A DNA stretch of 34,312 bases from contig JAYWDM010000244.1 in NCBI GenBank assembly GCA_043779885.1, forward strand, positions 1-34,312, given 5' to 3'. A program made the translations under genes and the position numbers. This document shows positions 2,229-19,160 of this stretch, piece by piece. The stretch is from Betaproteobacteria bacterium. Its GTDB lineage: Bacteria; Pseudomonadota; Gammaproteobacteria; Burkholderiales; SG8-41. Below the pieces are notes generated by a model. The model was given only the letters and a program-made list of their open reading frames with translations. It had not been told where the DNA came from and made no database searches. How positions within the stretch are numbered: position 1 is the first letter of the stretch; each line of letters starts with the position of its first letter.

Positions 2229-2270
2229 TTGACTGCGGTCAAGGCTATATGGCGTGCCCGCAGTTAATTT
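2229..2270 (+). promoter_or_regulatory. Crp/Fnr-type box TTGACTGCGGTCAA plus -10 TAATTT (class II geometry) upstream of sucC
   Basis: Palindrome at 2229-2242, exactly 22 nt spacer, TAATTT at 2265-2270. Predicted TSS near 2277. Same architecture as the sites at 10065, 13248 and 19119. Confidence 0.55.
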
Positions 2271-2338
2271 ATGCTTGGCTCATGCGCGCGCCGGCCCATG
2301 GTGGCTGGTCGCGCGTCAAAATCAAGTAAAGGACGTTA

Positions 2339-3511
2339 ATGAAAATCCACGAATACCAGGCGAAAGAAGTCCTGCGCAAATACGGCGTGATCACACCGCG
2401 CGGTATCGCGTGCTTCAGCGTCGCCGAAGCGGTCGCGGCCGCCGGGAAACTGGGCGGCAAGGTGTGGGTAGTCAAGGCGCAAATCCACGCGGGCGGGCGC
2501 GGCAAGGGCGGCGGCGTGAAACTCGCGCGTTCCGTCGATGAAGTCAAAGCGCATGCAAGCCAGATCCTCGGCATGCAGCTGATAACGCATCAGACCGGTC
2601 GCGAAGGACAAAAAGTCCGCCGTCTGCTGGTCGAAGAGGGCGCCGACATCAGGAAGGAACTATACGCAGGGATGGTTGTTGATCGCGGCACCCAGCGCGT
2701 TTGTCTGATGGCGAGCAGCGAAGGCGGCATGGACATCGAGGAAGTCGCGGCCAAAACGCCGGAGAAAATCCACAAGGTTTTCATCGACCCGATGCGCGGC
2801 TTGCAGGACAGCGAGTGCGATGACGTTGCGCGCAGGATAGGCATACCCGAAGCGTCGTTCGCGAAAGCGCGTACCGCGCTGCAGGGGCTGTATAAGGCAT
2901 TCGACGAGACTGACGCGTCGCTCGCCGAAATCAATCCGCTGATCCTTACCAACGGCGGCGATGTGATTGCGCTCGACGCGAAAATGACTTTCGACGATAA
3001 CGCGCTCTTTCGCCATCCCGATATCGTCGCCATGCGCGATCTGGACGAGGAAGACCCGGCCGAGATCGAAGCGTCCAAATTCGACCTCTCGTACATCTCG
3101 CTCGACGGCAACATCGGCTGCCTCGTCAACGGCGCGGGCCTTGCGATGGCGACCATGGACATCACCAAGCTGTACGGCGGCAGTCCCGCCAATTTTCTCG
3201 ACGTCGGCGGCGGCGCGTCGGCGGAGAAAGTGACCGAGGCATTCAAGATCATGCTCAAGAATCCCGCGGTCAAGGCGATTCTGGTCAATATATTCGGCGG
3301 CATCATGAAATGCGACGTCATTGCGCAGGGCGTAGTCACGGCCGCCAAAGAGGTGCATCTGAACGTGCCGCTCGTCGTGCGGCTCGAAGGCACCAACGTC
3401 GATCTCGGCAAGCGGATACTTGCCGAATCGGGATTGCCTATCATATCGGGCGACAACATGGCGGATGCTGCCGCCAAGGTGGTCAAAGCGGCACAAGGAG
3501 CGGCGGCATGA
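2339..3511 (+). CDS. sucC: Succinyl-CoA ligase (ADP-forming) beta subunit
   Basis: 390 aa. [35 protein letters not shown] and [11 protein letters not shown]...[11 protein letters not shown] align end to end with betaproteobacterial SucC as I recall it. Confidence 0.95.
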
Positions 3512-4386
3512 GTATTCTGATCGACAGGAACACCCGCGTGATGACGCAGGGCATTACCGGCAAGACCGGTCAGTTCCACACCAAAATGGGCAAGGAATAT
3601 GCGAACGGCGCCAACTGCTATGTGGCGGGCGTCAATCCGAAAAAGCCCGGTGAATCGTACGAGGGCATACCGATTTTCGCGACTGTGAAGGAAGCCAAGG
3701 AGCAGACCGGCGCGAATGTGTCGGTAATCTACGTGCCGCCGCCGTTTGCGGCGGCCGCCATCGATGAGGCGGTCGATGCCGACCTTGATCTCGTGATCTG
3801 CATCACCGAAGGCATACCGGTGCGCGACATGATCCGCACCAAGTACAGGCTGCAGGGCAAACGCACCCGGCTGATCGGCCCGAACTGTCCGGGCGTCATC
3901 ACGCCCGGGGAGATCAAGATCGGCATCATGCCGGGACACATCCACAAACGGGGCCCGGTCGGCGTCGTGTCGCGTTCGGGCACGCTCACTTACGAAGCTG
4001 TCGGGCAACTGATGGAGCAGGGGCTCGGCCAGTCGTCATGCGTCGGCATCGGCGGCGACCCGGTCAACGGCTTGAAACACATCGATATCATGAAGATGTT
4101 CAACGCCGACGATGCAACCGAGGCGGTCGTCATGGTCGGCGAGATCGGCGGCGCCGACGAAGAGGAGTGCGCGCGCTGGATCAAGGCCAACATGAAAAAG
4201 CCGGTCGTCGGGTTCATCGCCGGCGTTACCGCGCCCCCGGGCAAGCGTATGGGGCACGCGGGCGCCATCATCTCAGGCGGCAAAGGTACCGCGGCCGAGA
4301 AGCTGGCGGTAATGGAGGAATGCGGCATCAAGGTAACGCGCAATCCCGCCGAAATGGGCAAGCTGATGAAGTCCGTATTGAAGTAG
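3508..4386 (+). CDS. sucD: Succinyl-CoA ligase alpha subunit
   Basis: ATG 3508 overlaps the sucC stop (ATGA). [35 protein letters not shown] and the catalytic-His motif [18 protein letters not shown] are present. Confidence 0.95.
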
Positions 4387-4497
4387 TGCGCGGCATGTTC
4401 CGGGTCAAATGACCGGCGCGTGCAGTGGCAGGCGCAACGTGATTCGACGGCGCGTCGCAGCAAATTGTTGGTATGTATTTGAACGGAGGAGCGAGAC

Positions 4498-6165
4498 GTG
4501 GACGCGGCAGGCAACAGGAGTAGACGCGGCAAGCCGAAAGGCCGCGCAGTCGACGCCACGGCGCTCGTCGAAGTGCAGGCACTGCTCGGCAACGCGCCGC
4601 GCCGGCGCGATTTGCTGATCGAGCATTTGCACAAGATACAGGATCGCTACGGCCGGCTCGCGGCCGCGCATATCGTGGCGCTCGCGCGCGAGATGCAGCT
4701 CGCGACCACCGAAGTCTACGAGGTCGCGACGTTCTACCACCATTTCGACGTGGTCAGGGAAGGCGATGCGACGCCGCCTGCACTGACCGTGCGCGTATGC
4801 GATTCGCTGTCGTGCGAACTTGCCGGCGCGCAGCCCCTGCTGGAAAAACTGAAGGTGACGCTCGGACCCGGCGTACGCGTGATCCCGGCGCCATGCATCG
4901 GGCGTTGCGAGCAGGCGCCGGCGGCTGTCGTCGGTCAGAACCCGATCGCGCATGCCACGGTCGCAAAAGTAAAAGCGCAGGTGATGGCGAAAAACACCCG
5001 CTGCGCGGCGGCCAAGTACATCGACTTTGACGAATACCGCAGGAGCGGCGGCTATAAGGTGGCGGCCGAGTGCCTTGCCGGCAAGCGCGATGCCGAGGAT
5101 ATTTTGAAGGCGATGGAGAACTCAGGCCTGCGCGGTCTTGGCGGCGCGGGTTTTCCGGCCGGGCGCAAGTGGCGCATCCTGCGCGGCGAGCGCGCGCCCC
5201 GCCTGATGGCGATCAACATCGACGAGGGCGAACCGGGCACGTTCAAAGACCGCTATTACCTCGAACGCGATCCGCACCGCTTTCTTGAGGGCATGATCGT
5301 CGCCGCGTGGACGGCGCAAATCTCTGAAGTCTATATTTATCTGCGTGACGAGTACGCCGGTTGCCGCGCGATACTCGAACGCGAACTCGCGGCAATGCAG
5401 AAAAATCCGCCGTGCCCGCTGCCGCCGATTCATTTGCGGCGCGGCGCCGGCGCATACATCTGCGGCGAGGAGTCGGCGATGATCGAGTCCATTGAAGGCA
5501 AGCGCGGCATGCCGCGCTTGAGGCCGCCGTACGTCGCGCAGGTGGGGCTCTTCGGCTACCCGACGCTTGAGCACAACATGGAAACGCTTTACTGGGTGCG
5601 CGATATCCTGGAAAAAGGCGCCGACTGGTTCGCCGGGCAGGGACGCCATGGACGCAAAGGCCTGCGCTCGTTTTCGGTGTCTGGCCGCGTCAACACGCCC
5701 GGAGTGCACCTTGCGCCGGCCGGCATTACGGTCAGGGAACTCATCGCGGAATACTGCGGCGGCATGCTGCCCGGACAGAAGTTTTACGCCTATCTGCCCG
5801 GCGGCGCTTCAGGCGGCATACTGCCGGCGGGCATGGGTGATATTCCGCTCGACTTCGACACGCTGCAGCCGCACGGCTGCTTCATCGGCTCGGCGGCGGT
5901 GATCATCCTGTCTGATCGGGATAAAGCGAGCGCGGCAGCGCGCAACCTGATGAAGTTTTTCGCGGATGAATCGTGCGGTCAGTGCACGCCGTGCCGTGTC
6001 GGCACGGCCAAAGCGCTGAATCTGATGCAGGCCGCGAAGTGGGACCAGCCATTGCTCGAGGAACTGTCGGGCGCGATGGCGGACGCATCCATATGCGGTC
6101 TCGGCCAGGCGGCGCCCAATCCCGTGCGCTGCGTGGTCAAGCATTTTGCGCATGAGATCGAATGA
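4498..6165 (+). CDS. fdsB: NAD-dependent formate dehydrogenase diaphorase subunit (fused NuoE/FdsG-like 2Fe-2S domain plus NuoF/FdsB-like FMN/NAD/4Fe-4S domain)
   Basis: GTG 4498 is preceded by GGAGGA. The N-terminal domain has a C-x4-C...C-x3-C pattern (VCDSLSCE...PCIGRCE). NuoF-like motifs: GLRGLGGAGFPAGRKW, YICGEESAMIESIEG, ESCGQCTPCR. Confidence 0.85.
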   Translation: MDAAGNRSRRGKPKGRAVDATALVEVQALLGNAPRRRDLLIEHLHKIQDRYGRLAAAHIVALAREMQLATTEVYEVATFYHHFDVVREGDATPPALTVRVCDSLSCELAGAQPLLEKLKVTLGPGVRVIPAPCIGRCEQAPAAVVGQNPIAHATVAKVKAQVMAKNTRCAAAKYIDFDEYRRSGGYKVAAECLAGKRDAEDILKAMENSGLRGLGGAGFPAGRKWRILRGERAPRLMAINIDEGEPGTFKDRYYLERDPHRFLEGMIVAAWTAQISEVYIYLRDEYAGCRAILERELAAMQKNPPCPLPPIHLRRGAGAYICGEESAMIESIEGKRGMPRLRPPYVAQVGLFGYPTLEHNMETLYWVRDILEKGADWFAGQGRHGRKGLRSFSVSGRVNTPGVHLAPAGITVRELIAEYCGGMLPGQKFYAYLPGGASGGILPAGMGDIPLDFDTLQPHGCFIGSAAVIILSDRDKASAAARNLMKFFADESCGQCTPCRVGTAKALNLMQAAKWDQPLLEELSGAMADASICGLGQAAPNPVRCVVKHFAHEIE

Positions 6166-6178
6166 GGCGAGGTAAACG

Positions 6179-9001
6179 ATGACGGCGATGAGCAAACCGG
6201 AATTCGAAGCGATGCCGGTCGAATTCAAACTGAACGGCAAGGACGTGGTCGGCTACGGCCACGAGACGATAATCCAGACGGCCAAACGCCTGGGCGTTGA
6301 AATACCGCACCTGTGCTACAAGGAAGGCCTGCGGCCTGACGGCAACTGCCGCGCGTGCATGGTCGAGATCAAGGGCGAGCGCGTGCTGGCGCCGTCGTGC
6401 TGCCGCCAGCCCACCGCCGGCATGGAAGTTACGAGCGACAGCGCGCGCGCCGTCGCGTCGCAGAAGATGGTGTTGGAGTTGCTGCTCGCCGACATGCCGA
6501 GGGAACGCCACACGCTCAATTCCGAACTCGACCACTGGGCAGCGCGGCTTAGAGTCGGCAAGCCGCGTTTTGCGGCGCGCCACCAGCCCAAGGCCGATCT
6601 GTCGCACTTCGGCATGGCGGTCAATCTCGATTCGTGCATCCAGTGCACGCGCTGCGTGCGCGCATGCCGCGAGGAGCAGGTCAATGACGTGATCGGCTAC
6701 GCGTTTCGCGGCGAGCATTCGAAGATCGTGTTCGACCTTGACGATCCCATGGGCGACTCGACGTGCGTCGCGTGCGGCGAATGCGTGCAGGCGTGCCCGA
6801 CCGGCGCGTTGATGCCGGCGCGCAATGCCGGCATGGTGAAGCCCGACAAACAGGTCCACTCGGTTTGCCCCTACTGCGGCGTCGGTTGCCAGCTGACTTA
6901 CAACATCAAGGACAACCGGATCCTGTCGGTCGATGGCCGCGACGGACCATCGAACCACGGCCGCCTGTGCGTCAAAGGCCGTTACGGTTTCGATTACGTC
7001 AATCACAAGCAGCGCCTGACCCAGCCGTTGATCCGCAAAACCGGCGTGCCCAAACGGGTGGACCTGGAGATGGATCCGGCCAATCCGCTCGAATTTTTCC
7101 GCGAGGCGACGTGGGACGAAGCGCTCGACCTCGTCGCGGCCAAGCTGAAGCAAATCCGCGACCGCGGCGGGGAAAGAGCCGGCAGAAATGCGCTGTGCGG
7201 ATTCGGTTCGGCTAAAGGCAGCAACGAAGAGGCGTATCTTTTCCAGAAACTCGTGCGCACCGGATTCGGCAGCAACAACGTCGATCACTGCACGCGCCTG
7301 TGCCACGCGTCGAGCGTCGCCGCGCTGATGGAGGGAGTGAATTCAGGCGCCGTGTCAAACCAGGTCAACGATGTCGCGAATGCCGAAGTGGTGTTCGTGA
7401 TCGGCGCCAACCCGACGTCGAACCATCCGGTGGCCGCAACGTGGATCAAGAACGCGGTGAAACGCGGCACTACGCTGATCGTGGCGGACCCGCGGCGCGG
7501 CGATCTCGCGCGTCACGCGGCGCATTATCTGCAGTTCAAGCCGGATACGGACGTGGCGCTCCTGAACGCGATGATGCACACGATAGTGCACGAGGGGCTC
7601 GTCGACGAGGACTTCATCCGCAGCCGCACCATCGGTTATGACGAGTTGAAGCGCAACGTTGCCAACTACAGTCCGGAAGCGATGGCGCCAGTGTGCGGCA
7701 TTGCCGCGCCGACGATCCGGGAAGTGGCGCGGCTCTACGCGAAATCCAAAGGCTCGATGATCCTGTGGGGCATGGGCATCTCCCAGCATGTCCACGGCAC
7801 CGACAACGCGCGCTGTCTGATCGCATTGTGCATGATGACCGGCCAGATCGGTCGCCCCGGAACCGGCCTGCATCCGCTGCGCGGCCAGAACAACGTGCAG
7901 GGCGCATCCGACTCGGGACTGATCCCGATGTTCTATCCGGATTACCAGCGCGTGGGCGATGACGAAGCGCGCGCCCGTTTTGAAAAACTGTGGGGCGCCA
8001 CACTCGATCCCAAGCCGGGGCTCACGGTGGTCGAGATCATGGACGCGGTGCACCATGGCACGATACACGGCATGTACATCATGGGTGAGAACCCGGCAAT
8101 GTCGGATCCTGACGCGCATCACGCGCGCGAAGCGCTCGCGAATCTCGAGCATCTGGTGGTGCAGGAAATTTTCATGACGGAAACGTGCTACTACGCCGAC
8201 GTGATATTGCCCGCCACCGCGTGGCCGGAAAAGACCGGTACCGTGACCAATACGGACCGTATGGTGCAATTGGGCCGCCAGGCGCTCGTCGCGCCGGGCG
8301 ACGCGAGGTCCGACCTCTGGATCATTCAGGAAATCGCGCGCCGCATGGGCCTCGACTGGAACTACGATGGCGCGCGCGACGTGTTCAACGAAATGCGCAA
8401 GGCCATGAACTCGATTGCCGGCATCACGTGGGAGCGCCTCGAAGCCGAATCCTGCGTCACCTATCCGTGCGAGCAGGAGGGCGATCCGGGCGAGCCAGTC
8501 GTGTTCGTCGATAGATTTCCGACGCCTACCGGACGCGCCAATCTGGTGCCGGCCGACATCATTCCCGCGGCGGAACAGCCGGACTGCGATTTTCCGTTCG
8601 TGCTGATCACGGGACGCCAGCTCGAACATTGGCATACCGGCGCGATCACGCGCCGCGCCACCGTGCTCGATGCCATCGAACCGGAACCGGTCGCATCGAT
8701 GCACCCGCTCGACCTCGATGCAATCGGCGCCAGACCCGGCGATGTGATCACGGTCGAATCGCGGCGCGGCATCATCTCGTTGTATGCGCGCGTTGACGAC
8801 GGCACCCCCAGGGGGGCCGTGTTCATCCCGTTCTGTTTCTACGAAGCCGCGGCCAACCTGCTGACGAATCCGGCACTCGATCCGTTCGGCAAGATTCCGG
8901 AATTCAAGTACTGCGCGGTCAAAGTCATGCGCGGCGGCGAATTGACGCCGCGTTCAAGCTACGGCGGCGGGCAGGCGATGCAAGCGCTGGTAACGGCATA
9001 A
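6179..9001 (+). CDS. fdsA: Formate dehydrogenase catalytic alpha subunit (molybdopterin, NAD-linked type, Cys active site)
   Basis: 940 aa. N-terminal 2Fe-2S and 4Fe-4S cysteine clusters (CYKEGLRPDGNCRACMVE, CIQCTRCVRAC, CVACGECVQACP, CPYCGVGC). Molybdopterin oxidoreductase body with HCTRLCHASSV: Cys rather than Sec, and no in-frame TGA. Confidence 0.9.
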   Translation: MTAMSKPEFEAMPVEFKLNGKDVVGYGHETIIQTAKRLGVEIPHLCYKEGLRPDGNCRACMVEIKGERVLAPSCCRQPTAGMEVTSDSARAVASQKMVLELLLADMPRERHTLNSELDHWAARLRVGKPRFAARHQPKADLSHFGMAVNLDSCIQCTRCVRACREEQVNDVIGYAFRGEHSKIVFDLDDPMGDSTCVACGECVQACPTGALMPARNAGMVKPDKQVHSVCPYCGVGCQLTYNIKDNRILSVDGRDGPSNHGRLCVKGRYGFDYVNHKQRLTQPLIRKTGVPKRVDLEMDPANPLEFFREATWDEALDLVAAKLKQIRDRGGERAGRNALCGFGSAKGSNEEAYLFQKLVRTGFGSNNVDHCTRLCHASSVAALMEGVNSGAVSNQVNDVANAEVVFVIGANPTSNHPVAATWIKNAVKRGTTLIVADPRRGDLARHAAHYLQFKPDTDVALLNAMMHTIVHEGLVDEDFIRSRTIGYDELKRNVANYSPEAMAPVCGIAAPTIREVARLYAKSKGSMILWGMGISQHVHGTDNARCLIALCMMTGQIGRPGTGLHPLRGQNNVQGASDSGLIPMFYPDYQRVGDDEARARFEKLWGATLDPKPGLTVVEIMDAVHHGTIHGMYIMGENPAMSDPDAHHAREALANLEHLVVQEIFMTETCYYADVILPATAWPEKTGTVTNTDRMVQLGRQALVAPGDARSDLWIIQEIARRMGLDWNYDGARDVFNEMRKAMNSIAGITWERLEAESCVTYPCEQEGDPGEPVVFVDRFPTPTGRANLVPADIIPAAEQPDCDFPFVLITGRQLEHWHTGAITRRATVLDAIEPEPVASMHPLDLDAIGARPGDVITVESRRGIISLYARVDDGTPRGAVFIPFCFYEAAANLLTNPALDPFGKIPEFKYCAVKVMRGGELTPRSSYGGGQAMQALVTA

Positions 9002-9023
9002 CGTCATTTGACGAGGGTTGGCG

Positions 9024-9938
9024 ATGGACCAAACGAGCGCGGCGATTGTCGGACAGGCGCACTGGGCGCACAAGCGGGACATCAGGCTTTTCCTGTGGGA
9101 AAAGCGGGCGCTCATGCAACCGAGCCGCGGCACGCTGGTGTTCGTGCACGGCTCGTCGATGGCCTCGACGCCCGGGTTCGATTTTCAAATGCCGGGCAGG
9201 CCCGATGCTTCGATGATGGACTGGTTTGCGCGCCGCGGTTTCGATACGTGGTGCCTGGACATGGAAGGCTACGGGCGTTCTTCCAAGCATCGCGACATCA
9301 ACTGTGACGTCGCCAACGGCGCGGATGATCTGGAGGCCGCGATCGATTACATTGCAGACGCGCGCGGCACCGAAAAATTCGTGTTCTACGGCAGTTCGTC
9401 GGGCGCTTTGCGCGCGGCGCTTTACGCGCAACGTCATCCGCAACGTGTCGCGCGGCTCGTTCTGAGCGCATTCGTATGGACCGGCAAGGGCAGCCCGACG
9501 CTCGCCGAGCGCACGAAGAAGCTGCCTGAATATCGCGCCAACAACCGCCGCAAAATCGACCGCGCGTTCGTAAACACCATGTTTACGCGCGACCACGACG
9601 GCGGCGCCGACAAGGCGGTGATCGACGCCTTTGCCGAACAGATACTGGCGCTCGACGATTCGGTGCCGACCGGCACGTACGTCGACATGTGCGCGAATCT
9701 GCCGCTGGTGGATCCGGCGAAAATCACCGCGCCGACGCTGATCATGCGCGGTCAGTACGACGGCATCGCGTCGATGGACGACCTGCTCGATTTCTTTGCT
9801 CGCCTGCCGAACCCGGACAAGCAGTTCGCCGTGATGCCCGGCATCGCCCACAACAGCACCAAGGCCGCGAATTACGCGATTGCCTACCACATACTGTTGT
9901 CTTTCCTCACTCAGCCCGCGCCGGTTTATCGCGGCTGA
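9024..9938 (+). CDS. Alpha/beta-fold hydrolase of unknown substrate
   Basis: ORF 9018..9938; ATG 9024 follows GAGGG. Oxyanion VFVHGSS, nucleophile elbow GSSSG, later RGQYDGI and GIAHNS (Ser-Asp-His candidates). Lies 16-22 nt after the fdsA stop. Confidence 0.75.
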   Translation: MDQTSAAIVGQAHWAHKRDIRLFLWEKRALMQPSRGTLVFVHGSSMASTPGFDFQMPGRPDASMMDWFARRGFDTWCLDMEGYGRSSKHRDINCDVANGADDLEAAIDYIADARGTEKFVFYGSSSGALRAALYAQRHPQRVARLVLSAFVWTGKGSPTLAERTKKLPEYRANNRRKIDRAFVNTMFTRDHDGGADKAVIDAFAEQILALDDSVPTGTYVDMCANLPLVDPAKITAPTLIMRGQYDGIASMDDLLDFFARLPNPDKQFAVMPGIAHNSTKAANYAIAYHILLSFLTQPAPVYRG

Positions 9939-10064: not shown

Positions 10065-10106
10065 TTGACTGCGGTCAAGGCCGAAGCGTGCGGTGCGGCC
10101 TATATT
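10065..10106 (+). promoter_or_regulatory. Crp/Fnr-type box TTGACTGCGGTCAA plus -10 TATATT upstream of fhs
   Basis: Palindrome at 10065-10078, 22 nt spacer, TATATT at 10101-10106. Predicted TSS near 10113, which puts the box centre at -41.5. Confidence 0.6.
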
Positions 10107-10177: not shown

Positions 10178-11854
10178 ATGGCGTTATCGGACATTGAAAT
10201 CGCGCAAGCCGCGAAGATGCAGCGCATTACCAAGGTTGCCGCGAAGATCGGCATTCCGGACGATCATCTCGTTCCGTACGGCCACTATAAAGCCAAGGTG
10301 TCGCTCGAATACGTCGACAGCCTGGCCGGCAAGAAAGACGGCAAGCTCATCCTGGTAACCGCGATCAGTCCGACGCCCGCGGGCGAGGGCAAGACCACCA
10401 CCACCGTCGGTCTGGGCGATGCGCTGAACAAGATCGGCAAGCAGACGGTGATCTGCCTGCGCGAGCCGAGCCTGGGTCCGGTGTTCGGCGTCAAGGGCGG
10501 GGCCGCCGGCGGCGGTTATGCGCAGGTCGTGCCGATGGAGGACATCAATCTGCACTTTACCGGCGACTTCAACGCGATCGCCCTTGCCAACAACCTGCTT
10601 GCGGCGGCGCTCGACAATCATATTCACCATGGCAACGCGCTCGGCATCGATGTGCGGCGCATTGCATGGAAGCGCGTAATGGACATGAACGACCGCGCAT
10701 TGCGCGACATCACGGTCGGCCTCGGCGGACCCGGCAACGGCTTTCCGCGCCAGGACGGCTTCGATATCGTGGTCGCCTCCGAAGTGATGGCGATATTCTG
10801 CCTGTCGAATTCTCTCAAGGACCTGAAGACGCGCCTGGGCAATATCGTCGTCGCCTATACGCGCGAGCAGAAGCCGGTGCTGGCCAAAGACCTGAAGGTG
10901 CACGGCGCGATGACTGTGCTCCTGAAGGACGCGCTGCAGCCGAACCTCGTGCAGACGCTTGAAAATAACCCCGCGTTCATCCACGGCGGACCGTTTGCCA
11001 ATATCGCGCACGGCTGCAACTCGGTGATCGCGACCAAGACCGCGTTGAAACTCGCCGACTACGTCGTGACCGAGGCCGGCTTCGGCGCCGATCTGGGCGC
11101 GGAAAAGTTCGTAGACATCAAATGCCGCAAGTCCGGCCTGCGGCCGTCGGCGGTGGTGATCGTGGCGACCGTGCGCGCGCTCAAGTACCATGGCGGCGTC
11201 GATCTGAAGGAGCTCAACAAGGAAAATCTTCCCGCGCTGGAAAAAGGCGTGGCCAACCTTGAACGCCACGTCAATAACATCCGCAACCATTACGGCCTGC
11301 CGTGCGTGGTCTCGATCAACCATTTCACGTTCGACACGGAGGCGGAAATCGAGCTGCTGAAGAGGAAAATGGCGCACCACGAAGCGCCGGTGATCCTTGC
11401 CAGGCATTGGGCGGAGGGCGGTGCGGGCGCGGCTGACGTCGCGCGCGCAGTGGTCGATCTGATAGAAAAAGTGCCCACCAACTTCAAGTTCGTCTACGAC
11501 GACGCGCTGCCGCTGTGGGACAAGATCAGGGCCATCGCCACCAACATCTACGGCGCGGCCGACGTCACCGCGGACAGCAAGGTGCGCGGCCAGATCAAGA
11601 AACTGCAGGACGACGGTTACGGCCATTACCCGGTGTGCGTCGCCAAGACGCAATATTCGTTTTCGACCGATCCGCAACTGCGCGGCGCGCCGTCCGGCCA
11701 CATGATCAACATTCGCGAAGTGCGGCTCGCGGCCGGCGCGGAATTCGTCGTCATGGTGTGCGGCGACGTGATGACCATGCCAGGCCTGCCGAAAGTTCCG
11801 TCGGCGGAGAAAATCGATCTCACCGACGATGGCAAGGTCGTCGGGCTGTTCTAG
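10178..11854 (+). CDS. fhs: Formate--tetrahydrofolate ligase
   Basis: 558 aa, [20 protein letters not shown]..., [15 protein letters not shown] and full-length family resemblance. Confidence 0.95.
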
Positions 11855-12012
11855 GCGAAGATTGCGGTGTGTGCCGCGTGGCGGGATGGTTTTCGTCCCG
11901 TCGCCGCCCAAAGGCCCGTGACGCGTTCGCCTGCTCCGTGTATAGTTTTGGCCTTCGCGTGGAGCGCCGCGCGGCTTATAACGTATAACCGGCAATTCGA
12001 GGAGCTACGCGC

Positions 12013-12774
12013 ATGATCGAATATCTATCTAACCCGGTGTTCTGGGTTGGTCTCGGCCAGATCATCATCGTCAACATCGTGCTGTCGGGTGACAACGCGG
12101 TGGTGATCGCGCTCGCGGCGCGCTCGCTGCCGCCCCATCAGCAGAAGCAGGCAATAATCTGGGGATCGGTCGCCGCGATCATCATGCGCGTGATCCTGAC
12201 GATCCTCGCGGTCGAGATGCTGAAGCTGCCGTATCTGAAACTTGTTGGCGCGTTGCTGCTGTTCTGGATTGCCGTGCAATTGCTGGTGCCCGAGGATCAC
12301 GACGAAGACGGCGTCAAGAGCAGCGGCAACCTGATGGCGGCGATCCGCACCATACTGATCGCCGACCTGGTGATGAGCCTCGACAACGTGATCGGCGTGG
12401 CGGCGGCAGCCAAGGGCGACGACATACTTCTGATACTCGGTCTCGCGATCAGCATTCCGCTGATCATTTTCGGCAGCACCATTATCCTGAAGCTGATGGA
12501 CCGTTATCCGGTGATCATTACCGGTGGTGCGGCCCTGCTCGGTTGGGTGGCCGGTGAAATGCTGGTCACCGATCCGGTATTGATAGGCTGGATCGCGGCC
12601 AACATGCCGTGGATGCACATTCATCTGCCCTTGGTCGGCGAAATCAGCTGGGCGCAGATTCTGGGCGCGGCATTGGTGATCGGCGCGGGCAAATTCATGG
12701 CGGCACGTGCTGCGCATGGGGAAGTAAAAGCAGTCGATCTGGCCGCCGATGAGCAACAGACAAAGTCGGGTTGA
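12013..12774 (+). CDS. TerC/YjbE-family integral membrane protein
   Basis: 253 aa, multi-TM. Duplicated family motifs LSGDNAVVIALA and MSLDNVIGVAAAA. Confidence 0.85.
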   Translation: MIEYLSNPVFWVGLGQIIIVNIVLSGDNAVVIALAARSLPPHQQKQAIIWGSVAAIIMRVILTILAVEMLKLPYLKLVGALLLFWIAVQLLVPEDHDEDGVKSSGNLMAAIRTILIADLVMSLDNVIGVAAAAKGDDILLILGLAISIPLIIFGSTIILKLMDRYPVIITGGAALLGWVAGEMLVTDPVLIGWIAANMPWMHIHLPLVGEISWAQILGAALVIGAGKFMAARAAHGEVKAVDLAADEQQTKSG

Positions 12775-12801
12775 TCGCGGCGACTAATGGGGAGTCAGGC
12801 G

Positions 12802-13221
12802 ATGTTGAAAGTATTGATACCGGTGGATGGTTCGGACAGCTCTTTGCGCACGGTTCAGTATGTGATTCAGAAAGCGGCGCTTTACAAGGAGCCGCTTGAA
12901 CTGCACCTGCTGAATGTTCAGCGGCCGTTTCCCGGTACTATCCGCGGCGTGCACGAACAGGCGGAACAGTACCATCATGATGAAGGCATCAAGGCGCTCG
13001 CCGGCGCGCGCAAGCTACTCGACGATGCCGGGCTCAAAAACACCTATCACATCATCGTCGGCGAGGCGGGCGAGGTGATCGCCCATTTCTGCAGGGACAA
13101 GCAGATTCAGCAGGTCGTGATGGGCACGCGCGGCGCAAGTTCGGTTGCCAACATGCTGCTCGGGTCGGTCGCGACCAAAGTGCTGCATCTGGTGGAGGTG
13201 CCGGTAACGCTGGTGAAGTGA
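12802..13221 (+). CDS. Universal stress protein (UspA family)
   Basis: ORF 12787..13221. ATG 12802 lies 7 nt after GGGGAG. MLKVLIPVDGSDSS ... VVMGTRGASSVANMLLGSVATKVL. Confidence 0.85.
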   Translation: MLKVLIPVDGSDSSLRTVQYVIQKAALYKEPLELHLLNVQRPFPGTIRGVHEQAEQYHHDEGIKALAGARKLLDDAGLKNTYHIIVGEAGEVIAHFCRDKQIQQVVMGTRGASSVANMLLGSVATKVLHLVEVPVTLVK

Positions 13222-13247: not shown

Positions 13248-13289
13248 TTGATGGCGGTCAAGTAAATTTGCTTTTGCTTTAAGTACCAT
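13248..13289 (+). promoter_or_regulatory. Crp/Fnr-type box TTGATGGCGGTCAA plus -10 TACCAT upstream of tctC
   Basis: Box at 13248-13261, 22 nt spacer, TACCAT at 13284-13289. Predicted TSS near 13296, giving a 5' UTR of about 155 nt. Confidence 0.5.
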
Positions 13290-13449: not shown

Positions 13450-14466
13450 ATGGATAAGTCTCTGGTGTTGCGGCGCACGGTTGGGCTGGTGCTGGCAGCG
13501 GTAGTGGCAGGGGCCGCCATCCCGGCAGTCGGTGCGGGATGGGAACCTTCCAAACCAGTTGAATTCGTGGTGCCGGCCGGCACGGGCGGCGGCGCGGATC
13601 AGATGGCGCGACTGCTGCAGGGCGTGATTTCCAAGAACAACCTGATGAAGCAGCCGCTGATCGTGGTCAACAAGTCGGGCGGCGCGGGTGCGGAGGGTTT
13701 TCTCGCCGTCAAGGAATCGAAAGGTGAACCGCACAAGATCATCATCACGCTTTCCAACCTGTTCACGACTCCGCTCGCAACCGGCGTGCCTTTCAACTGG
13801 AAGGACTTGACGCCGGTAGCAATGCTGGCCCTCGACCAGTTCGTGCTGTGGGTCAACGCGGACACGCCGTACAAGACCGCGAAAGAGTATCTCGACGCGG
13901 TGAGGGCGGCCGGGCCGAGCAAGTTCAAGATGGGCGGCACCGGGTCGAAGCAGGAAGACCAGATCATCACGGTCGCGATCGAAAAGGCCGCCGGCGTCAA
14001 ATTCATCTACATACCGTTCAAGGGCGGCGGTGACGTTGCGGTGCAACTGGTCGGCAAGCACACGGATTCCAGCGTTAACAATCCGATCGAGGCGGTCGCG
14101 CAGTGGCGTGCCGGCAAGCTGCGGCCGCTGTGCGTCTTCGACGATACGCGCATGCCGTACAAGGGCAAGGTAACAGACACCATGTCGTGGAACGACATCC
14201 CGACCTGCAAGGAAGCGGGTGTGCCGACCGACTATGTCATGCTGCGCGGCATCTTCATGCCGGGCGGCGCGACCAGGGAACAGGTCGATTATTTCGTCAA
14301 TCTCTTCAAGCGCGTGCGTGAAACGCCGGAATGGAAAAAATTCATGGAAGACGGCGCCTTCAATACGACGTTCATGAGCGGTGCGGAATATGCAAAGTGG
14401 ATCGAAAAGGCGGAGAATACCCATCGCGAATTGATGCGGGAGGCGGGTTTCCTGGCCAAACCTTAA
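13450..14466 (+). CDS. tctC: Tripartite tricarboxylate transporter substrate-binding protein
   Basis: 338 aa, AGGAGG RBS and signal peptide. KPVEFVVPAGTGGGADQMAR, VNKSGGAG, IPFKGGGD. Followed by tctB and tctA. Confidence 0.9.
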   Translation: MDKSLVLRRTVGLVLAAVVAGAAIPAVGAGWEPSKPVEFVVPAGTGGGADQMARLLQGVISKNNLMKQPLIVVNKSGGAGAEGFLAVKESKGEPHKIIITLSNLFTTPLATGVPFNWKDLTPVAMLALDQFVLWVNADTPYKTAKEYLDAVRAAGPSKFKMGGTGSKQEDQIITVAIEKAAGVKFIYIPFKGGGDVAVQLVGKHTDSSVNNPIEAVAQWRAGKLRPLCVFDDTRMPYKGKVTDTMSWNDIPTCKEAGVPTDYVMLRGIFMPGGATREQVDYFVNLFKRVRETPEWKKFMEDGAFNTTFMSGAEYAKWIEKAENTHRELMREAGFLAKP

Positions 14467-14557
14467 GGGGCGCCCCTCACGACTTCGCGTGGCGCCCGCG
14501 TGCGCGGCCGCCCGCGCAGCCGCGCACAGGCCGTGAAAGCCGGGTTCCAGTACAGCC

Positions 14558-15079
14558 ATGAATGACAAAAAGCAATCTGCAACGGACGGGCGCGCCGGCA
14601 TTTCGATGCGTGCCATGGAGGTCGCGACCGCCGTTCTGCTGTTCGTGGTCGGCGCAGTCGTCGTATACGACAGCTATCGGCTGGGCTCGAAATGGGGCAG
14701 CGATGGGCCGCAGTCAGGATATTTCCCGTTCTATGTCGGGCTCCTGATCTGCGTCGCGAGCGCGGTCAATCTGGCGCAGGCTTTTTTCACCCGGTCCGCA
14801 GACAGCGAAATGTTTGTGACCTGGGGGCCGCTCAAACTGGTGTTGACGGTGCTGATTCCGGCCACGGTCTACGTGCTCGGCGTGAAATACATCGGCATAT
14901 ACGTGGCATCCGCGATCTATATCGCCGTGTTCATGGCGTATCTGGGCAAGTACTCGTGGTTGAAGAGCATTACGGTCGGTCTTGCGGTCAATACCAGTTT
15001 TTTCCTGATGTTCGAAGTGTGGTTCAAGGTGCCGCTGTTCAAGGGCAGCCTGGATCCGTTGCGCTTCCTGGGGTATTGA
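14558..15079 (+). CDS. tctB: Tripartite tricarboxylate transporter small membrane subunit
   Basis: 173 aa, 4 predicted TM segments. The position between tctC and tctA and the GYFPFYVG motif are typical of TctB. Start uncertain (14558, 14606 or 14615). Confidence 0.75.
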   Translation: MNDKKQSATDGRAGISMRAMEVATAVLLFVVGAVVVYDSYRLGSKWGSDGPQSGYFPFYVGLLICVASAVNLAQAFFTRSADSEMFVTWGPLKLVLTVLIPATVYVLGVKYIGIYVASAIYIAVFMAYLGKYSWLKSITVGLAVNTSFFLMFEVWFKVPLFKGSLDPLRFLGY

Positions 15080-15122
15080 TCATGGATAGTGCGCTCCGCT
15101 TGTCGTCGCCGGTGAACGCAGG

Positions 15123-16616
15123 ATGTTAGAACTTGGCGCGTTGTTTCACGGCTTCGCGGTCGTGCTGACCCCGTTCAATCTGCTGCTGATGATGATCGGC
15201 ATCGTGCTCGGCGTCATTATCGGCGTGCTGCCGGGCCTGGGCGGCGCCAACGGCGTCGCCATACTGCTGCCGCTCACGTTCACGATGCCGCCAACTTCCG
15301 CGATCATCATGCTGTCGTGCATTTACTGGGGCGCGCTTTTCGGCGGCGCGATTACCTCGATATTATTCAACATTCCCGGCGAGCCGTGGTCGGTCGCGAC
15401 GACGTTCGACGGCTATCCAATGGCGCAGCAGGGGCGCGCCGGCGAGGCGCTGACCGCCGCGTTCACGTCGTCGTTCGTCGGCGCGCTGGTGGCCGTGGTG
15501 ATGATCACTTTTCTGGCGCCCCTGGTTGCGCAGTTCGCGCTGCAGTTCGGCCCGCCCGAGTTCTTCGCCGTCTATTTGCTGACGTTCTGCAGTTTCATCG
15601 GCATGGGCAAGGGTTCGCCGTTCAAGACTTTGGCCGCGATGATGCTGGGTTTCGCGCTGGCGGCGGTCGGCATGGATACCGTCACCGGTCAATTGCGGCT
15701 GATTTTCGGTTTCACCGACCTCATGCGCGGCTTTGATTTTCTGATTGCGGTGATCGGGCTGTTCGGCATCGGCGAGATCCTGCTGTCGATGGAGGAGGGT
15801 TTGTCGTTCACCGGCAAAAGCGCAAAAATCGATCCCAAAGTGGTGCTCGAAACGTGGAAAAAGCTGCCGCGCTACTGGCTGACCTCGGTGAGGAGCTGCC
15901 TGATCGGCTGCTGGATGGGAATTACGCCCGGCGGCGCGACGCCCGCTTCGTTCATGAGTTACGGCGTGGCCAAGCGCATGTCGCGCAATGGCGACAAGTT
16001 CGGCACCGGCGAGATCGAAGGCGTGATCGCGCCCGAGACGGCGGCGCACGCCGCGGGCACCAGCGCGCTGCTGCCGATGCTGGCGCTCGGCATTCCCGGT
16101 TCGCCGACCGCCGCGGTGCTGCTCGGAGGCTTGCTGATCTGGGGGCTGCAGCCGGGGCCGCTGTTGTTCGTCGAGCAAAAGGATTTCGTGTGGGGCCTGA
16201 TCGCGAGCATGTATCTCGGCAATCTCGCCGGCCTGATCATCGTGCTGACCTGCGTGCCGCTGTTCGCGGCAATCCTGCGCATTCCGTTTTCGATCATCGC
16301 GCCGGTGATCATCGTCATCTGCGCGATCGGCGCCTACACGGTGCACAACGCGATGCTCGATATCTGGTTCATGCTGCTGTTCGGTGTGCTCGGCTACATA
16401 TTCAAGAAGCTCGACTATCCGCTCGCACCCTTGGTGCTGGCGCTGGTGCTCGGCGACCGCGCCGAAGATTCATTCCGCCAGTCGATGTTGATGTCGCAAG
16501 GCGAAATGGGCATTTTCTTTTCGAACTGGCTGGTCGGCGGCATCACGGCGCTGTCTTTAGTCATGCTGTTTTGGCCGTTGCTGTCCAGGCTGCTCCAGCG
16601 ACTGCGCGGGGACTGA
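15123..16616 (+). CDS. tctA: Tripartite tricarboxylate transporter large permease subunit
   Basis: 497 aa polytopic protein. GVLPGLGGANGVAILLPLTF, MLALGIPGSPTAAVLLGG. Confidence 0.9.
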   Translation: MLELGALFHGFAVVLTPFNLLLMMIGIVLGVIIGVLPGLGGANGVAILLPLTFTMPPTSAIIMLSCIYWGALFGGAITSILFNIPGEPWSVATTFDGYPMAQQGRAGEALTAAFTSSFVGALVAVVMITFLAPLVAQFALQFGPPEFFAVYLLTFCSFIGMGKGSPFKTLAAMMLGFALAAVGMDTVTGQLRLIFGFTDLMRGFDFLIAVIGLFGIGEILLSMEEGLSFTGKSAKIDPKVVLETWKKLPRYWLTSVRSCLIGCWMGITPGGATPASFMSYGVAKRMSRNGDKFGTGEIEGVIAPETAAHAAGTSALLPMLALGIPGSPTAAVLLGGLLIWGLQPGPLLFVEQKDFVWGLIASMYLGNLAGLIIVLTCVPLFAAILRIPFSIIAPVIIVICAIGAYTVHNAMLDIWFMLLFGVLGYIFKKLDYPLAPLVLALVLGDRAEDSFRQSMLMSQGEMGIFFSNWLVGGITALSLVMLFWPLLSRLLQRLRGD

Positions 16617-16631
16617 CCGCGGGAGTCGGGG

Positions 16632-17927
16632 ATGGCGCACCGTGCGCGAGGACGCCAGCATGGCCCCGGCTATCGCTGGCCGCAACTTATCCTTTGCATC
16701 ATCTGCATGGCGATGGTGGCCAACCTGCAATACGGTTGGACGTTGTTCGTCAACCCGATCGATGCCCGCTTCGGCTGGGGGCGTGCCGCGATCCAGGTAG
16801 CGTTCACGATTTTTATCCTCACCGAGACCTGGCTGATGCCGATCGACGGCTATCTCGCCGACCGTTTCGGCGCGCAGCGGGTGACCATGGCCGGCGGGGC
16901 GCTGGTTGGCATTGCGTGGGTGATGAACGCGTATGCCGGCTCGTTGATGACTCTGTACTTTTCCGCGGCGCTCGGTGGCGCGGGCGCCGGTGCTGTTTAC
17001 GGCGCTTGCATAGGCGCGGCGCTCAAGTGGTTTCCCGACCAACGCGGGCTTGCCGCAGGGCTCACCGCGGCCGGCTTCGGCACTGTCTCAGCGCTTACCC
17101 TGCTGCCAATCCAGGCCATGATCAAGTCGAGCGGTTATGAGACTGCCTTCCTGTATTTCGGCATCGGCCAGGGGCTGATCGTTTGTCTGGCCTCGTTCGG
17201 TCTTGCGCCGCCGCGGGAAGCGGGGTCGCGTCCAGTAACGACCGCAGCGCAGTATGCGACGCGCAACTACCGGCCGCTGCAGGTCGTGCAAACACCGGTG
17301 TTCTGGGTGATGTACCTGATTTTTGCGTTGATGGCGGCGGGCGGCTTGATCGCAGCCGCGCAGCTCGCGCCGATTGCCAAGGATTTCAGGATCGCCGACA
17401 TGCCGGTATCGATACTCGGTCTGACGCTTCCCGCGCTGTCGTTTGCACTGGCTATCGACCGGGTGTTCAACGGTCTCTCGCGGCCGTTTTTCGGCTGGGT
17501 ATCCGACCGCATCGGGCGCGAAAACACCATGTTCATTGCATTTGGCATAGAGGCGGTCTGTATCCTCGCGCTGGCCCGGTTCGGCGGGGATCCTGTCATG
17601 TTCGTGTTGCTCGCCGGCGTGGCATTCTTCGCGTGGGGCGAAATCTACAGTCTGTTGCCGGCGACCTGCGCCGACTCCTTCGGTTCGCAATACGCCGCGG
17701 CCAACGCGGGTTTGCTCTACACCGCAAAAGGCGCCGCGTCGCTGCTGGTGCCGGTGTCCAGCCTGCTGACCGATGCGACGGGGAATTGGCATGCCGTGTG
17801 TTACGTCGCGGCGGGATTGAACGCCGTGGCCGCGGTTACCGCGCTCGCGGTGCTCAAACCGATGCGCGCGCGGCAGCTCGCCGCGGACAGATCGCGGGAG
17901 CCGCAGCACGCGCCGAAGGCGGGGTAA
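16632..17927 (+). CDS. oxlT: MFS oxalate:formate antiporter (OxlT family)
   Basis: 431 aa. Aligns along its length with Oxalobacter OxlT as I recall it (QYGWTLF, KWFPDQRGLAAGLTAAGFG, FNGLSRPFFGWVSDRIGR, FFAWGEIYSLLPAT). Starts only 15 nt after the tctA stop. Confidence 0.85.
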   Translation: MAHRARGRQHGPGYRWPQLILCIICMAMVANLQYGWTLFVNPIDARFGWGRAAIQVAFTIFILTETWLMPIDGYLADRFGAQRVTMAGGALVGIAWVMNAYAGSLMTLYFSAALGGAGAGAVYGACIGAALKWFPDQRGLAAGLTAAGFGTVSALTLLPIQAMIKSSGYETAFLYFGIGQGLIVCLASFGLAPPREAGSRPVTTAAQYATRNYRPLQVVQTPVFWVMYLIFALMAAGGLIAAAQLAPIAKDFRIADMPVSILGLTLPALSFALAIDRVFNGLSRPFFGWVSDRIGRENTMFIAFGIEAVCILALARFGGDPVMFVLLAGVAFFAWGEIYSLLPATCADSFGSQYAAANAGLLYTAKGAASLLVPVSSLLTDATGNWHAVCYVAAGLNAVAAVTALAVLKPMRARQLAADRSREPQHAPKAG

Positions 17928-17960
17928 GAGCGCTGGTTGTGCATTCCGCGGCGCTCTGCG

Positions 17961-18155: not shown

Positions 18156-18279
18156 GGCGTCTCCTCGTTGGGCTGGTTTGGGGTAAGAATCTGCCGCGGC
18201 TGCCGGAAGTTGCGCCAGTGACCGCGTGAGACCATTGTCAGCGCAGGTGCCGGTGAAGAAAATCAGCTTGAGGTAATAA

Positions 18280-18297
18280 GCCGCCCGTATGGGCGGC
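18280..18297 (-). terminator. Possible terminator hairpin downstream of the Crp/Fnr gene
   Basis: GCCGCCC-ATAC-GGGCGGC on the minus strand, followed by TTATTA. The T-tract is weak. Confidence 0.3.
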
Positions 18298-18398
18298 GGC
18301 CGGCCGGCAGGCCCGGCGCAATGCGCGAAGCCGCCGCCAGCGCGGAACTGCGGGGAGTGGCGTGCGCGCGGTGGCGTGGCGGCCGGTTGCGAAGTGGT

Positions 18399-18418
18399 GC
18401 TATGACCTAGGTCATAGC
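18399..18418. repeat. Perfect 20-bp palindrome GCTATGACCTAGGTCATAGC
   Basis: Read directly from the sequence. Lies 14 nt beyond the stop of the Crp/Fnr gene. Confidence 0.9.
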
Positions 18419-18431
18419 GGGTCACGCCTGC

Positions 18432-19040
18432 TCAGATTTTGCCGCGTTTTTTCAGCCGGGATAGAGTTTCGGGCGACAAATTCAGATAGGACGCGAGTTC
18501 TTTTTTTGGCAGCCGTTCAACCAGCGCCGCGTGCTTGCGCGTAAAGCGCGCGACGCGCCCCGGGGCGTCGAGCAAATGCAGCGTAATGGTGTGCGCCATC
18601 ACTTCGCTCATCAGTTTCATCACCTCGAATTCGAAGCCGTTCTTGACCGCCGGATGCCGATCGATAAACGCGACCCATTCCTCCATGGGCAGCCGTGCCG
18701 TGCGCGCACGCGTGACCGCGCGTATCGAGTAAGGGATCGGGGTTTTCAGCCGCCATGCCGCATAGCTGGTATCGATTTCGGTTTCGGCCGCAAAACGCAG
18801 GATCATTTCCTTGCCGGCCCGCGTTGACACGACGCGCTTCAGGATGCCGTCGAGGATGAAATACTGTTGCATCGACGAGGCCCCCTGGTTTTCGAGCGGC
18901 GCGCCTTTGGCGTAGTCCGTTATGTCGACCAGCGGTTCGAACTCGTCCCATTGCTGGCGGTTGAGCGATTTCAACACCAGATTCTGACGCAGTTGCAGCC
19001 GCACTATCGTAGCTTCCGGGTGGCGGGCGAGCGAAGTCAT
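18432..19040 (-). CDS. Crp/Fnr-family transcriptional regulator (cNMP-binding-like effector domain plus C-terminal HTH), cysteine-free
   Basis: 202 aa. HTH KKELASYLNLSPETLSRLKK has the FNR-type E--SR recognition helix. The protein has no Cys at all, so no FNR-like Fe-S cluster. Divergent from oxc. Confidence 0.85.
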   Translation of the reverse strand: MTSLARHPEATIVRLQLRQNLVLKSLNRQQWDEFEPLVDITDYAKGAPLENQGASSMQQYFILDGILKRVVSTRAGKEMILRFAAETEIDTSYAAWRLKTPIPYSIRAVTRARTARLPMEEWVAFIDRHPAVKNGFEFEVMKLMSEVMAHTITLHLLDAPGRVARFTRKHAALVERLPKKELASYLNLSPETLSRLKKRGKI

Positions 19041-19118
19041 GAGTTGGGAAAGGGCGCTGTTGGAGTCGTTACGTCAGAGGGAATGCAGTGCCCGTTGAGT
19101 ATACCAAAACATGAAAAA

Positions 19119-19160
19119 TTGACCGTGGTCAAGGTGACTGGCCGGCCGACTGCCTATATT
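19119..19160 (+). promoter_or_regulatory. Crp/Fnr-type box TTGACCGTGGTCAA plus -10 TATATT upstream of oxc (and 79 nt upstream of the divergent regulator gene)
   Basis: Palindrome at 19119-19132, 22 nt spacer, TATATT at 19155-19160. Predicted TSS near 19167. Confidence 0.6.

Follow-up and report, generated by a model that had tools for sequence, protein, structure and literature searches.

In a 34,312-nucleotide (nt) contig of an uncultured soil Betaproteobacteria bacterium (GenBank JAYWDM010000244.1; hereafter the window), four promoters of a gene cluster for oxalate and formate catabolism share a 14-bp palindromic box, TTGAY-N4-GTCAA, at a fixed distance from a -10 hexamer, and the cluster encodes a 202-amino-acid (aa) regulator of the CRP/FNR family. 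We think it probable that this regulator governs a local oxalate/formate regulon by class II activation. The sites, their geometry and conservation, the fold and recognition helix of the regulator and its linkage to the sites are established here, and from them we infer binding, activation and the signal. Under the proposed mechanism, each box would be the site of a dimeric CRP/FNR-family factor at a sigma-70 promoter with a -10 element and without a -35 element, centered some 41.5 bp upstream of the transcription start; the bound factor would stand in for the -35 contact and recruit RNA polymerase. The most likely candidate for this factor is the regulator without cysteines that 18432-19040 encodes. 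Its regulon would cover oxalate uptake (tctCBA, oxlT), oxalyl-CoA decarboxylation (oxc, frc), formate disposal (an NAD-linked formate dehydrogenase, formate-tetrahydrofolate ligase and an Fmt-like formyltransferase) and succinyl-CoA synthetase, and the signal would be a metabolite of the oxalate pathway held in the pocket of the regulator's beta-barrel.

A search of the whole window for the box pattern (written TTGAYNNNNGTCAA) returned the four matches claimed by the initial annotation, at 2229, 10065, 13248 and 19119, and no others; 100 dinucleotide-preserving shuffles gave a mean of 0.15 matches (maximum 2), and none equalled the observed four. When the box is required to be followed by 22 nt and then TAnnnT, exactly the same four sites remain, all on the + strand and pointing toward the downstream genes, against 0.00 in shuffles. 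The sites, the regulator and the operons are as follows:

2229..2242, + strand: box 1, TTGACTGCGGTCAA, pattern match upstream of sucCD-fdhBA-hydrolase
2265..2270, + strand: candidate -10 TAATTT, 22 nt past box 1
10065..10078, + strand: box 2, TTGACTGCGGTCAA, pattern match upstream of fhs-terC-usp2
10101..10106, + strand: candidate -10 TATATT, 22 nt past box 2
13248..13261, + strand: box 3, TTGATGGCGGTCAA, pattern match upstream of tctCBA-oxlT
13284..13289, + strand: candidate -10 TACCAT, 22 nt past box 3
19119..19132, + strand: box 4, TTGACCGTGGTCAA, pattern match between the divergent regulator gene and oxc-frc-formyltransferase
19155..19160, + strand: candidate -10 TATATT, 22 nt past box 4
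19098..19103, - strand: candidate -10 TATACT for the promoter of the regulator gene itself, at 15 nt from box 4
18432..19040, - strand: CRP/FNR-family regulator, 202 aa, cysteine-free, recognition helix S-P-E-T-L-S-R (Pfam, alignment, model)
2339..9938, + strand: operon 1, sucC, sucD, fdhB (NuoEF-like), fdhA and an alpha/beta hydrolase (family scans; synteny)
10178..13221, + strand: operon 2, fhs, terC (YjbE family) and a universal stress protein gene, usp (family scans)
13450..17927, + strand: operon 3, tctC, tctB, tctA and oxlT, the oxalate/formate antiporter (family scans)
19227..23442, + strand: operon 4, oxc, frc and an Fmt-like formyltransferase (family scans)

The genes first assigned to the four promoters (sucCD, fhs, tctCBA-oxlT and oxc-frc-formyltransferase) were correctly named according to family scans, which identify the products of fhs, oxc and frc as formate-tetrahydrofolate ligase, as oxalyl-CoA decarboxylase and as formyl-CoA transferase, and the formate dehydrogenase of operon 1 as an NAD-type enzyme with a NuoEF-like subunit and a molybdopterin alpha subunit. 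The boxes had also been called identical, which is true of the pattern and not of the sequence: only boxes 1 and 2 share one sequence, and boxes 3 and 4 depart from it at position 5 and in the central four bases. Their flanks are similar, as had been noted, with an A-rich 5′ side and GG at the 3′ side in three of the four. The statement that the window holds no other full match likewise stands. Relaxing the pattern to TTGA-N6-TCAA adds two sites, both within coding regions (18961 in the regulator gene and 24572 in a kinase gene), and allowing one mismatch adds a few more, of which those that were placed are all coding (13657 in tctC, 21289 and 22009 in frc, and 24572 in the kinase gene).

No -35/-10 pair was found by a sigma-70 scan at any of the four boxed promoters of the window, and if transcription starts 7 nt past the hexamer, the center of the box falls at -41.5 (22-nt spacing) or -42.5 (23-nt spacing); the starts predicted for the window are then near 2277, 10113, 13296 and 19167. 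The class II-type geometry proposed from the window extends to its relatives: TAnnnT lies 22 or 23 nt from the box in all unique exact-box promoters of oxc (63; 27 at 22 nt and 36 at 23 nt), frc (28) and fhs (13; nine at 22 nt and four at 23 nt). The tctC promoters of relatives have weaker hexamers, of the GATGAT or AAGAAT type, at the same position.

When one genome from each species was scanned, 482 stretches proved to encode a regulator relative; the best 80 of them (73-90% identity; nearly all from uncultured organisms, with Pelomicrobium in addition) were retrieved together with flanks of 10 kb. Among these loci, the genes surrounding the regulator keep a conserved order. Boxes were scored in relatives as exact TTGA-N6-TCAA, for which about 0.004 matches are expected per 260-nt region. 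By this measure, the box occurs upstream of the regulator in 78 of 79 loci, the remaining one having a single mismatch; upstream of oxc in 60 of 62, both exceptions being truncated tblastn matches to oxc with a box further up; and upstream of frc in 28 of the 30 loci that have it as the first gene. It also precedes tctC, by about 190-220 nt, in 41 of 57 loci, with a one-mismatch box in six more. Because the region upstream of sucC lay outside the first flanks, four loci (L081-L084) were added through SucC homologues along with two metagenome contigs (L115 and L171; SucC 76-80% identical), and in all six a box lies about 75-100 nt upstream of sucC, followed after 22-23 nt by TAAGTT, TAACTT, TAAGGT or TAGATT.

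Across 145 unique sites, the promoter-proximal half reads GGTCAA (G9 in 99%, G10 in 97%); 73% of the sites have TTGAC as their distal half, and 26% have TTGAT. The 5′ flank is A-rich, and the 22-nt spacer is nearly devoid of information. Phylogenetic footprinting in relatives, which had been proposed as a check, thus finds the boxes retained at orthologous promoters within intergenic sequence that has otherwise diverged. Chance, or shared ancestry alone, is rejected as an explanation of this pattern: spacers and flanks have diverged between species, while the box positions that played no part in picking the sites are 97-99% invariant. The boxes are, on these comparative data, under selection.

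Rearrangements of the locus (REARRANGEMENTS) serve as natural experiments. In about 35 species, oxc has moved to the other, downstream side of the regulator; the relocated gene comes with a separate box at the usual distance, and frc retains the divergent box. The initial annotation had treated fhs as a separate boxed promoter, and a box of its own does occur in 13 of the 29 loci with a readable region upstream of fhs, but this promoter exists only where genes have been inserted between fdhA and fhs, the window included. Of the box-less loci, 13 with a readable fhs were examined; in each, fhs comes after an upstream coding region, which is the 3′ end of fdhA where this was read, and has no boxed promoter to itself. 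Where an upstream fdhA match was reported, the gap between fdhA and fhs is 98-361 nt; in these loci, fhs is probably part of the sucCD-fdh operon. Because relocated oxc and separated fhs each gained their own box, every independent transcription unit of the pathway has one, which is what selection for co-regulation predicts. One of the loci added through SucC, L082, has an NMT1-type ABC transporter (18232-20851) inserted between the formate dehydrogenase genes and fhs, indicating that the accessory gene content of the island is flexible.

Box 4 lies between two divergent genes, and its relation to the regulator's own promoter is of a different kind. The regulator-side TATACT is retained in relatives, and its distance to the box varies (10-16 nt or about 38 nt). 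In the window, the box would be centered near -34.5 relative to this promoter, a position that would suggest autorepression, though the regulator-side spacing differs between sub-lineages. In the closest relatives (L001 9865, L003 7877, L006 1940, L008 446 and L011 9865), a second palindrome, TTGAAACCCCTCAA, overlaps the -10/+1 region of oxc, 27 nt past the main box, and may be an additional repressive site; it is degenerate in the window (TTGAACGCCCTAAG, 19160-19173). The tctC promoter (window 13262-13449; L002-L080) combines a weak -10 with a long leader of about 150-170 nt that contains lineage-specific hairpins.

The description of the product of 18432-19040 as a cysteine-free Crp/Fnr regulator with an E--SR recognition helix is borne out by sequence, alignment and fold model. 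The gene is divergent from oxc, and its product ends in ...LSPETLSRLKKRGKI. Hundreds of relatives at 83-99% identity occur in soil and freshwater metagenomes, those with names belonging to Betaproteobacteria or Burkholderiales. Beyond these, the family is fairly isolated, with 150 representatives (50% clustering) at E <= 1e-10, many of them fragments; its full-length relatives at 21-48% identity are also short proteins that end soon after the P-E-T-L-S-R helix. Pfam PF00027 (cNMP_binding) matches residues 42-129 at 29.5 bits against a cut-off of 27.5, HTH_Crp_2 does not match the window regulator at E <= 0.001, and the closest solved structures by sequence are 3dn7 (E 5.6e-11), DNR (1.4e-6) and CRP (about 1e-5).

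An AlphaFold (AF2) model built from a 30-sequence alignment that included the 21-48% identical relatives reached a predicted local distance difference test (pLDDT) score of 96.7; a first run, on 19 near-identical sequences, gave a pLDDT of 56 and was discarded. The model has eight strands within residues 38-117, a helix at 129-155 and a helix-turn-helix (HTH) at 178-197. Over its whole length (about 200 columns), Foldseek aligned it to cyclic AMP (cAMP)-bound GlxR and Mycobacterium tuberculosis CRP with a template modeling (TM) score of 0.83, and to Aliivibrio fischeri FNR with 0.81. As modeled, the protein has the barrel, the dimerization helix and the C-terminal HTH that define the CRP/FNR superfamily.

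The residues of the recognition helix can be set against the sequence of the sites. Pro189, Glu190 and Arg194 of the regulator align to R180, E181 and R185 of CRP; the segment S-P189-E190-T-L-S193-R194 is invariant in 19 of 19 family members, and the aligned segment of DNR is P-E-T-F-S-R. Rodionov et al. found that Ser or Pro at CRP position 180, together with Glu181, goes with the consensus wyTTGACnnnnGTCAArw (TTGACnnnnGTCAA) in local regulators of the HcpR type, whereas the box of beta-proteobacterial DNR is CTTGATnnnnATCAAG and that of FNR is TTGATnnnnATCAA (PMC1274295). With Pro-Glu at these two positions, the helix of the regulator therefore fits the box by this rule.

Whether the boxes serve the local regulator or a global one was assessed from 84 loci (about 1.3 Mb, at most 10 kb around the matches), the window and a metagenome scan, and the results favor the local one. 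The regulator is the only CRP/FNR gene within 10 kb in the 84 loci and the window; no second one was found in the 84 loci with E. coli FNR and CRP and family members as queries. All intergenic boxes in the 1.3 Mb belong to the oxalate/formate cluster, and the canonical FNR/DNR box, TTGAT-N4-ATCAA, occurs three times. No nir, nor, nos or hcp gene is present in the window or in the 84 loci. The metagenome scan, for TTGAC-N3-GGTCAAG followed after 21-22 nt by TATAnT, gave at least 120 matches. Among the 120 listed, 38 are oxc, frc or fhs promoters of the cluster; of the other 82, 34 are inside open reading frames (ORFs), and the intergenic ones are on contigs of 24-70% guanine plus cytosine (GC). 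Among the matches listed, no other target recurs in high-GC contigs.

Several points weigh against assigning the boxes to the local regulator. The pattern used in the metagenome scan was derived from cluster sites, which biases the scan toward the cluster. Unrelated intergenic matches precede hcp, ygbA-like, usp, U32-peptidase, hemerythrin, DsrC-like and ferredoxin genes, so that the box with its geometry is a general FNR/HcpR/Dnr architecture. The identification of the sites as those of an oxalate/formate regulon is supported, but TTGAC-N4-GTCAA is not special to this system: it equals the published HcpR-type consensus (PMC1274295), and it also stands before unrelated genes. The cell may have further sites beyond the cluster, and an FNR, Anr or Dnr paralogue whose helix is also E--SR might use the same boxes. 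The universal stress genes of the cluster would fit a hypoxia regulon too. In many bacteria, FNR, Anr and Dnr paralogues do share boxes.

It could be, then, that the boxes serve a global regulator of the FNR, Anr or Dnr type that responds to oxygen or nitric oxide (NO) and is encoded elsewhere, which would place the cluster in a general anaerobic or hypoxic regulon; oxalate decarboxylation and oxalate/formate antiport would constitute a low-oxygen energy strategy, and the adjacent regulator would be irrelevant or secondary. The box and its geometry have the classic FNR class II layout, the same pattern stands before the hcp, ygbA, usp, U32-peptidase and hemerythrin genes of other organisms, two universal stress protein genes lie in the cluster (one of them co-transcribed with fhs), and one database source labels a 95% identical homologue as a dissimilatory nitrate respiration regulator. 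Nevertheless, we regard this explanation as unlikely. The proximal half of the sites is GGTCAA at the 97-99% level, as opposed to the ATCAA of the FNR and beta-proteobacterial DNR consensus (PMC1274295), the canonical box is nearly absent from the loci, and a box accompanies the regulator gene in all but one of the 79 loci scored. Moreover, among the metagenome matches listed, cluster promoters dominate the high-GC ones, and no anaerobic target recurs.

Some of the unrelated matches have an arrangement like that of the window. At least seven have a CRP/FNR gene beside the box (L094, L101, L107, L123, L141, L157 and L184), so that the pairing of a local regulator with a box next to its gene is common. 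In L101, an hcp locus, the divergent HcpR-like gene is 24% identical to the window regulator. A recurrent box, TTGACTTAGGTCAAGG, stands at class II spacing on nine metagenome contigs with a GC content of 0.42-0.48 (L091, L135, L136, L146, L147, L169, L174, L185 and L193), mostly followed by an ORF of 121-129 aa (in L091, the box is inside an ORF); the one such ORF that was scanned, in L136, matches YgbA_NO, the 'nitrous oxide-stimulated promoter' family. These sites are probably an NO-responsive CRP/FNR regulon of another lineage. More distant relatives of the regulator (47% identical; L205-L207) proved uninformative as to context, being on contigs of 1-2 kb with no oxalate genes or box visible, and a search of plasmids returned only 25-32% identical Crp/Fnr genes, in Bacteroidota and Clostridium.

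If the local regulator binds the boxes, the question becomes what it senses. The protein contains no cysteine for an Fe-S cluster, and the family alignment has no conserved cysteine column. In a hidden Markov model (HMM) alignment, the cAMP contacts E72, R82 and S83 of CRP align to Ser, Ile and Pro, such that the phosphate-binding cassette is replaced throughout (G71-E72 by Thr-Ser, R82-S83 by Ile-Pro). The histidine of the DNR segment G-H-L, which we take to be the haem ligand H187, aligns to invariant Tyr185; DNR-like haem sensing is accordingly rated low, though other residues could bind haem. At the pocket positions V49 and S62 of CRP, the family has invariant arginines, R69 and R82 in the regulator, which are kept in relatives down to about 35% identity and, going by the alignment, suggest an anionic ligand.

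The arginines bear on a tentative proposal: within the CRP/FNR family, the regulator would be the first to sense a metabolite of the oxalate pathway (oxalate, formate, oxalyl-CoA or formyl-CoA), bound in a barrel pocket that these subfamily-specific residues line, and it would act as the master switch of a conserved oxalate/formate island, about 20 kb long, that several hundred species of uncultured Burkholderiales from soil and freshwater share. There are precedents for such sensing: in NtcA (2-oxoglutarate) and CprK (chlorophenolacetate), an organic acid in a cNMP-like barrel switches on class II activation of a pathway-specific regulon. Their motifs, GTA-N8-TAC for NtcA and TTAAT-N4-ACTAA for CprK, both differ from the box described here. 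By analogy, we adopt metabolite sensing of the NtcA/CprK type as a working model for the signal.

The regulator might instead be free of ligand and constitutively active, like FixK or SdrP, in which case control would be exerted through its expression, possibly with another factor at box 4. It has no cysteine, no canonical cNMP pocket and no haem histidine of the DNR type, box 4 lies within its own upstream region, and the model is in an active-like conformation, although a predicted conformation is weak evidence. But the beta-barrel domain is highly conserved (83-99% identity across hundreds of sequences), the pocket arginines suggest a ligand, and the regulator-side box, 15 nt from TATACT, is not at class II spacing; we judge a ligand-free regulator to be about as improbable as a global one.

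A further source of signal is suggested by a block of signaling genes that follows the formyltransferase gene (23762-33764) and is syntenic with the regulator in most related loci, wherever flanks reach:

23762-26347: CHASE2 Ser/Thr kinase (family scan)
26353-27180: PP2C phosphatase (family scan)
27202-28005: FHA protein (family scan)
28203-30467: CHASE2 class III adenylate/guanylate cyclase (family scan)
~30470-31243: cyclic-nucleotide phosphodiesterase-like metallo-beta-lactamase (MBL) protein (family scan)
31317-33764, + strand: GAF-MshEN-T2SSE ATPase (family scan)

The local regulator could bind the boxes and take as its signal a cyclic nucleotide, which the CHASE2-domain cyclase encoded 9 kb downstream would produce and the neighboring phosphodiesterase would break down; this would form a CRP circuit of the cAMP or cGMP type. 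Its match to cNMP_binding agrees with this, as does the synteny of the cyclase and phosphodiesterase-like genes with the regulator, and its predicted fold is nearest to cAMP-bound GlxR and to CRP. However, the phosphate-binding arginine of CRP is missing, the cyclase product has a more obvious receptor in the ATPase, whose gene comes directly behind those of the cyclase and phosphodiesterase, than in the regulator, and exact, loose and one-mismatch scans of the window place no box before any gene of the signaling block. Of the alternatives considered, we find this one the least likely, and we rank the possible signals with a pathway metabolite ahead of no ligand, and no ligand ahead of a cyclic nucleotide.

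Among known systems, one of the closest is HcpR (HcpR1 group, predicted for Geobacter, Desulfuromonas and cyanobacteria by PMC1274295), likewise a cysteine-free local regulator of the CRP/FNR family that is often divergent from its target and has a small, clustered regulon. The two share the wyTTGACnnnnGTCAArw consensus, and where HcpR has Ser or Pro at CRP R180 with Glu181 kept, the window regulator has Pro-Glu. In contrast, HcpR targets hcp, frdX and nor and senses NO by haem, whereas the genes here are those of oxalate/formate catabolism with no NO-related gene in the cluster, and identity to the HcpR-like regulator beside hcp is about 24%. DNR of Pseudomonas aeruginosa (PDB 3dkw), the second-best solved structure by sequence (E 1.4e-6), resembles the window regulator in its helix (P-E-T-F-S-R as compared with P-E-T-L-S-R), in lacking Fe-S cysteines and in activating from FNR-type boxes. 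It differs in that its beta-proteobacterial box is CTTGATnnnnATCAAG (PMC1274295) and its regulon is denitrification; the window regulator is also shorter, ending just past the recognition helix, and has the invariant Tyr in place of the haem histidine.

The boxed promoters are laid out like class II promoters of E. coli FNR, with a 14-bp TTGA-N6-TCAA that would be centered near -41.5, an E--SR helix in the putative activator, and a -10 without a -35. But FNR is a global regulator with an N-terminal cysteine cluster for [4Fe-4S] and sites of the form TTGAT-N4-ATCAA, whereas the window regulator is cysteine-free and its presumed boxes are TTGAC/GGTCAA. The best solved match, 3dn7 (E 5.6e-11), is a cyclic nucleotide-binding regulatory protein of Cytophaga hutchinsonii from structural genomics that belongs, like the regulator, to a group of short proteins (about 195 aa) ending shortly after a P-E-x-L-S helix; it is uncharacterized, comes from a different phylum and is only about 20-25% identical. 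To judge by its residues, the regulator lacks the features that define FNR proper and cAMP-binding CRP and, so far as could be tested, those that define DNR. Mechanism and motif are of the known FNR/HcpR/Dnr type, and the content of the regulon and the regulator subfamily appear to be undescribed. In our searches of the literature, no regulator of the CRP/FNR type turned up for oxc and frc; the regulation of these marker genes is described as understudied in a 2024 review (PMC13409138).

Some features of the cluster genes deserve comment. The Fmt-like formyltransferase (window 22510-23442; 310 aa) scores under the cut-off for a true methionyl-tRNA formyltransferase. Its gene follows frc in 60 of the 64 related loci in which frc was found, and, together with Fhs, the enzyme may link formyl-CoA or formate to the 10-formyl-tetrahydrofolate pool. 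In Pelomicrobium-type loci (L023, L032, L036 and L047; about 8100-9825 or 1621-3270), the place of oxc behind the box is held by a thiamine-diphosphate enzyme with 26% identity to the window Oxc; frc and the formyltransferase are still present. The terC gene (12013-12774) is a member of the 'riboswitch-associated' YjbE family, but scanning the window against Rfam gave zero matches, hence no yybP-ykoY or other riboswitch was seen ahead of terC or within the long leader of tctC. The gap between fhs and terC contains a sigma-70-like promoter match (11918-11946).

Upstream of box 1, a strong terminator-like hairpin (GCGCAGCCCCTCGGGGCTGCGT with a T run; 1855-1876) ends a tctC-usp unit. An ORF at 1734-2207 (157 aa) spans this hairpin, has no family match and is probably not a gene, nor probably is the ORF at 17961-18425, which has neither a family match nor a homologue in related loci. 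A 916-aa ORF on the - strand (31281-34031) matches no family, and its translation is rich in Arg, Leu and Ala; it is an antisense artefact of the real gene, which lies on the + strand at 31317-33764, and its apparent homologues in other loci reflect that same gene.

In soil, oxalate from plants and fungi is a major source of carbon, and it drives the oxalate-carbonate pathway. The locus described here offers a concrete circuit that can be tested, made up of a single regulator, a box of 14 bp and four or five promoters. This circuit is conserved across the 80 species genomes studied, out of 482 in which a regulator relative is encoded. The regulon likewise sets out the accessory genes that accompany oxc and frc: the TctCBA transporter, succinyl-CoA synthetase, NAD-dependent formate dehydrogenase, Fhs and the Fmt-like formyltransferase. 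Should its effector be confirmed, the regulator with its box could be used as an oxalate- or formate-responsive expression module, and if the regulator does sense a metabolite of the pathway, it would provide the first transcriptional handle on environmental oxalotrophy.

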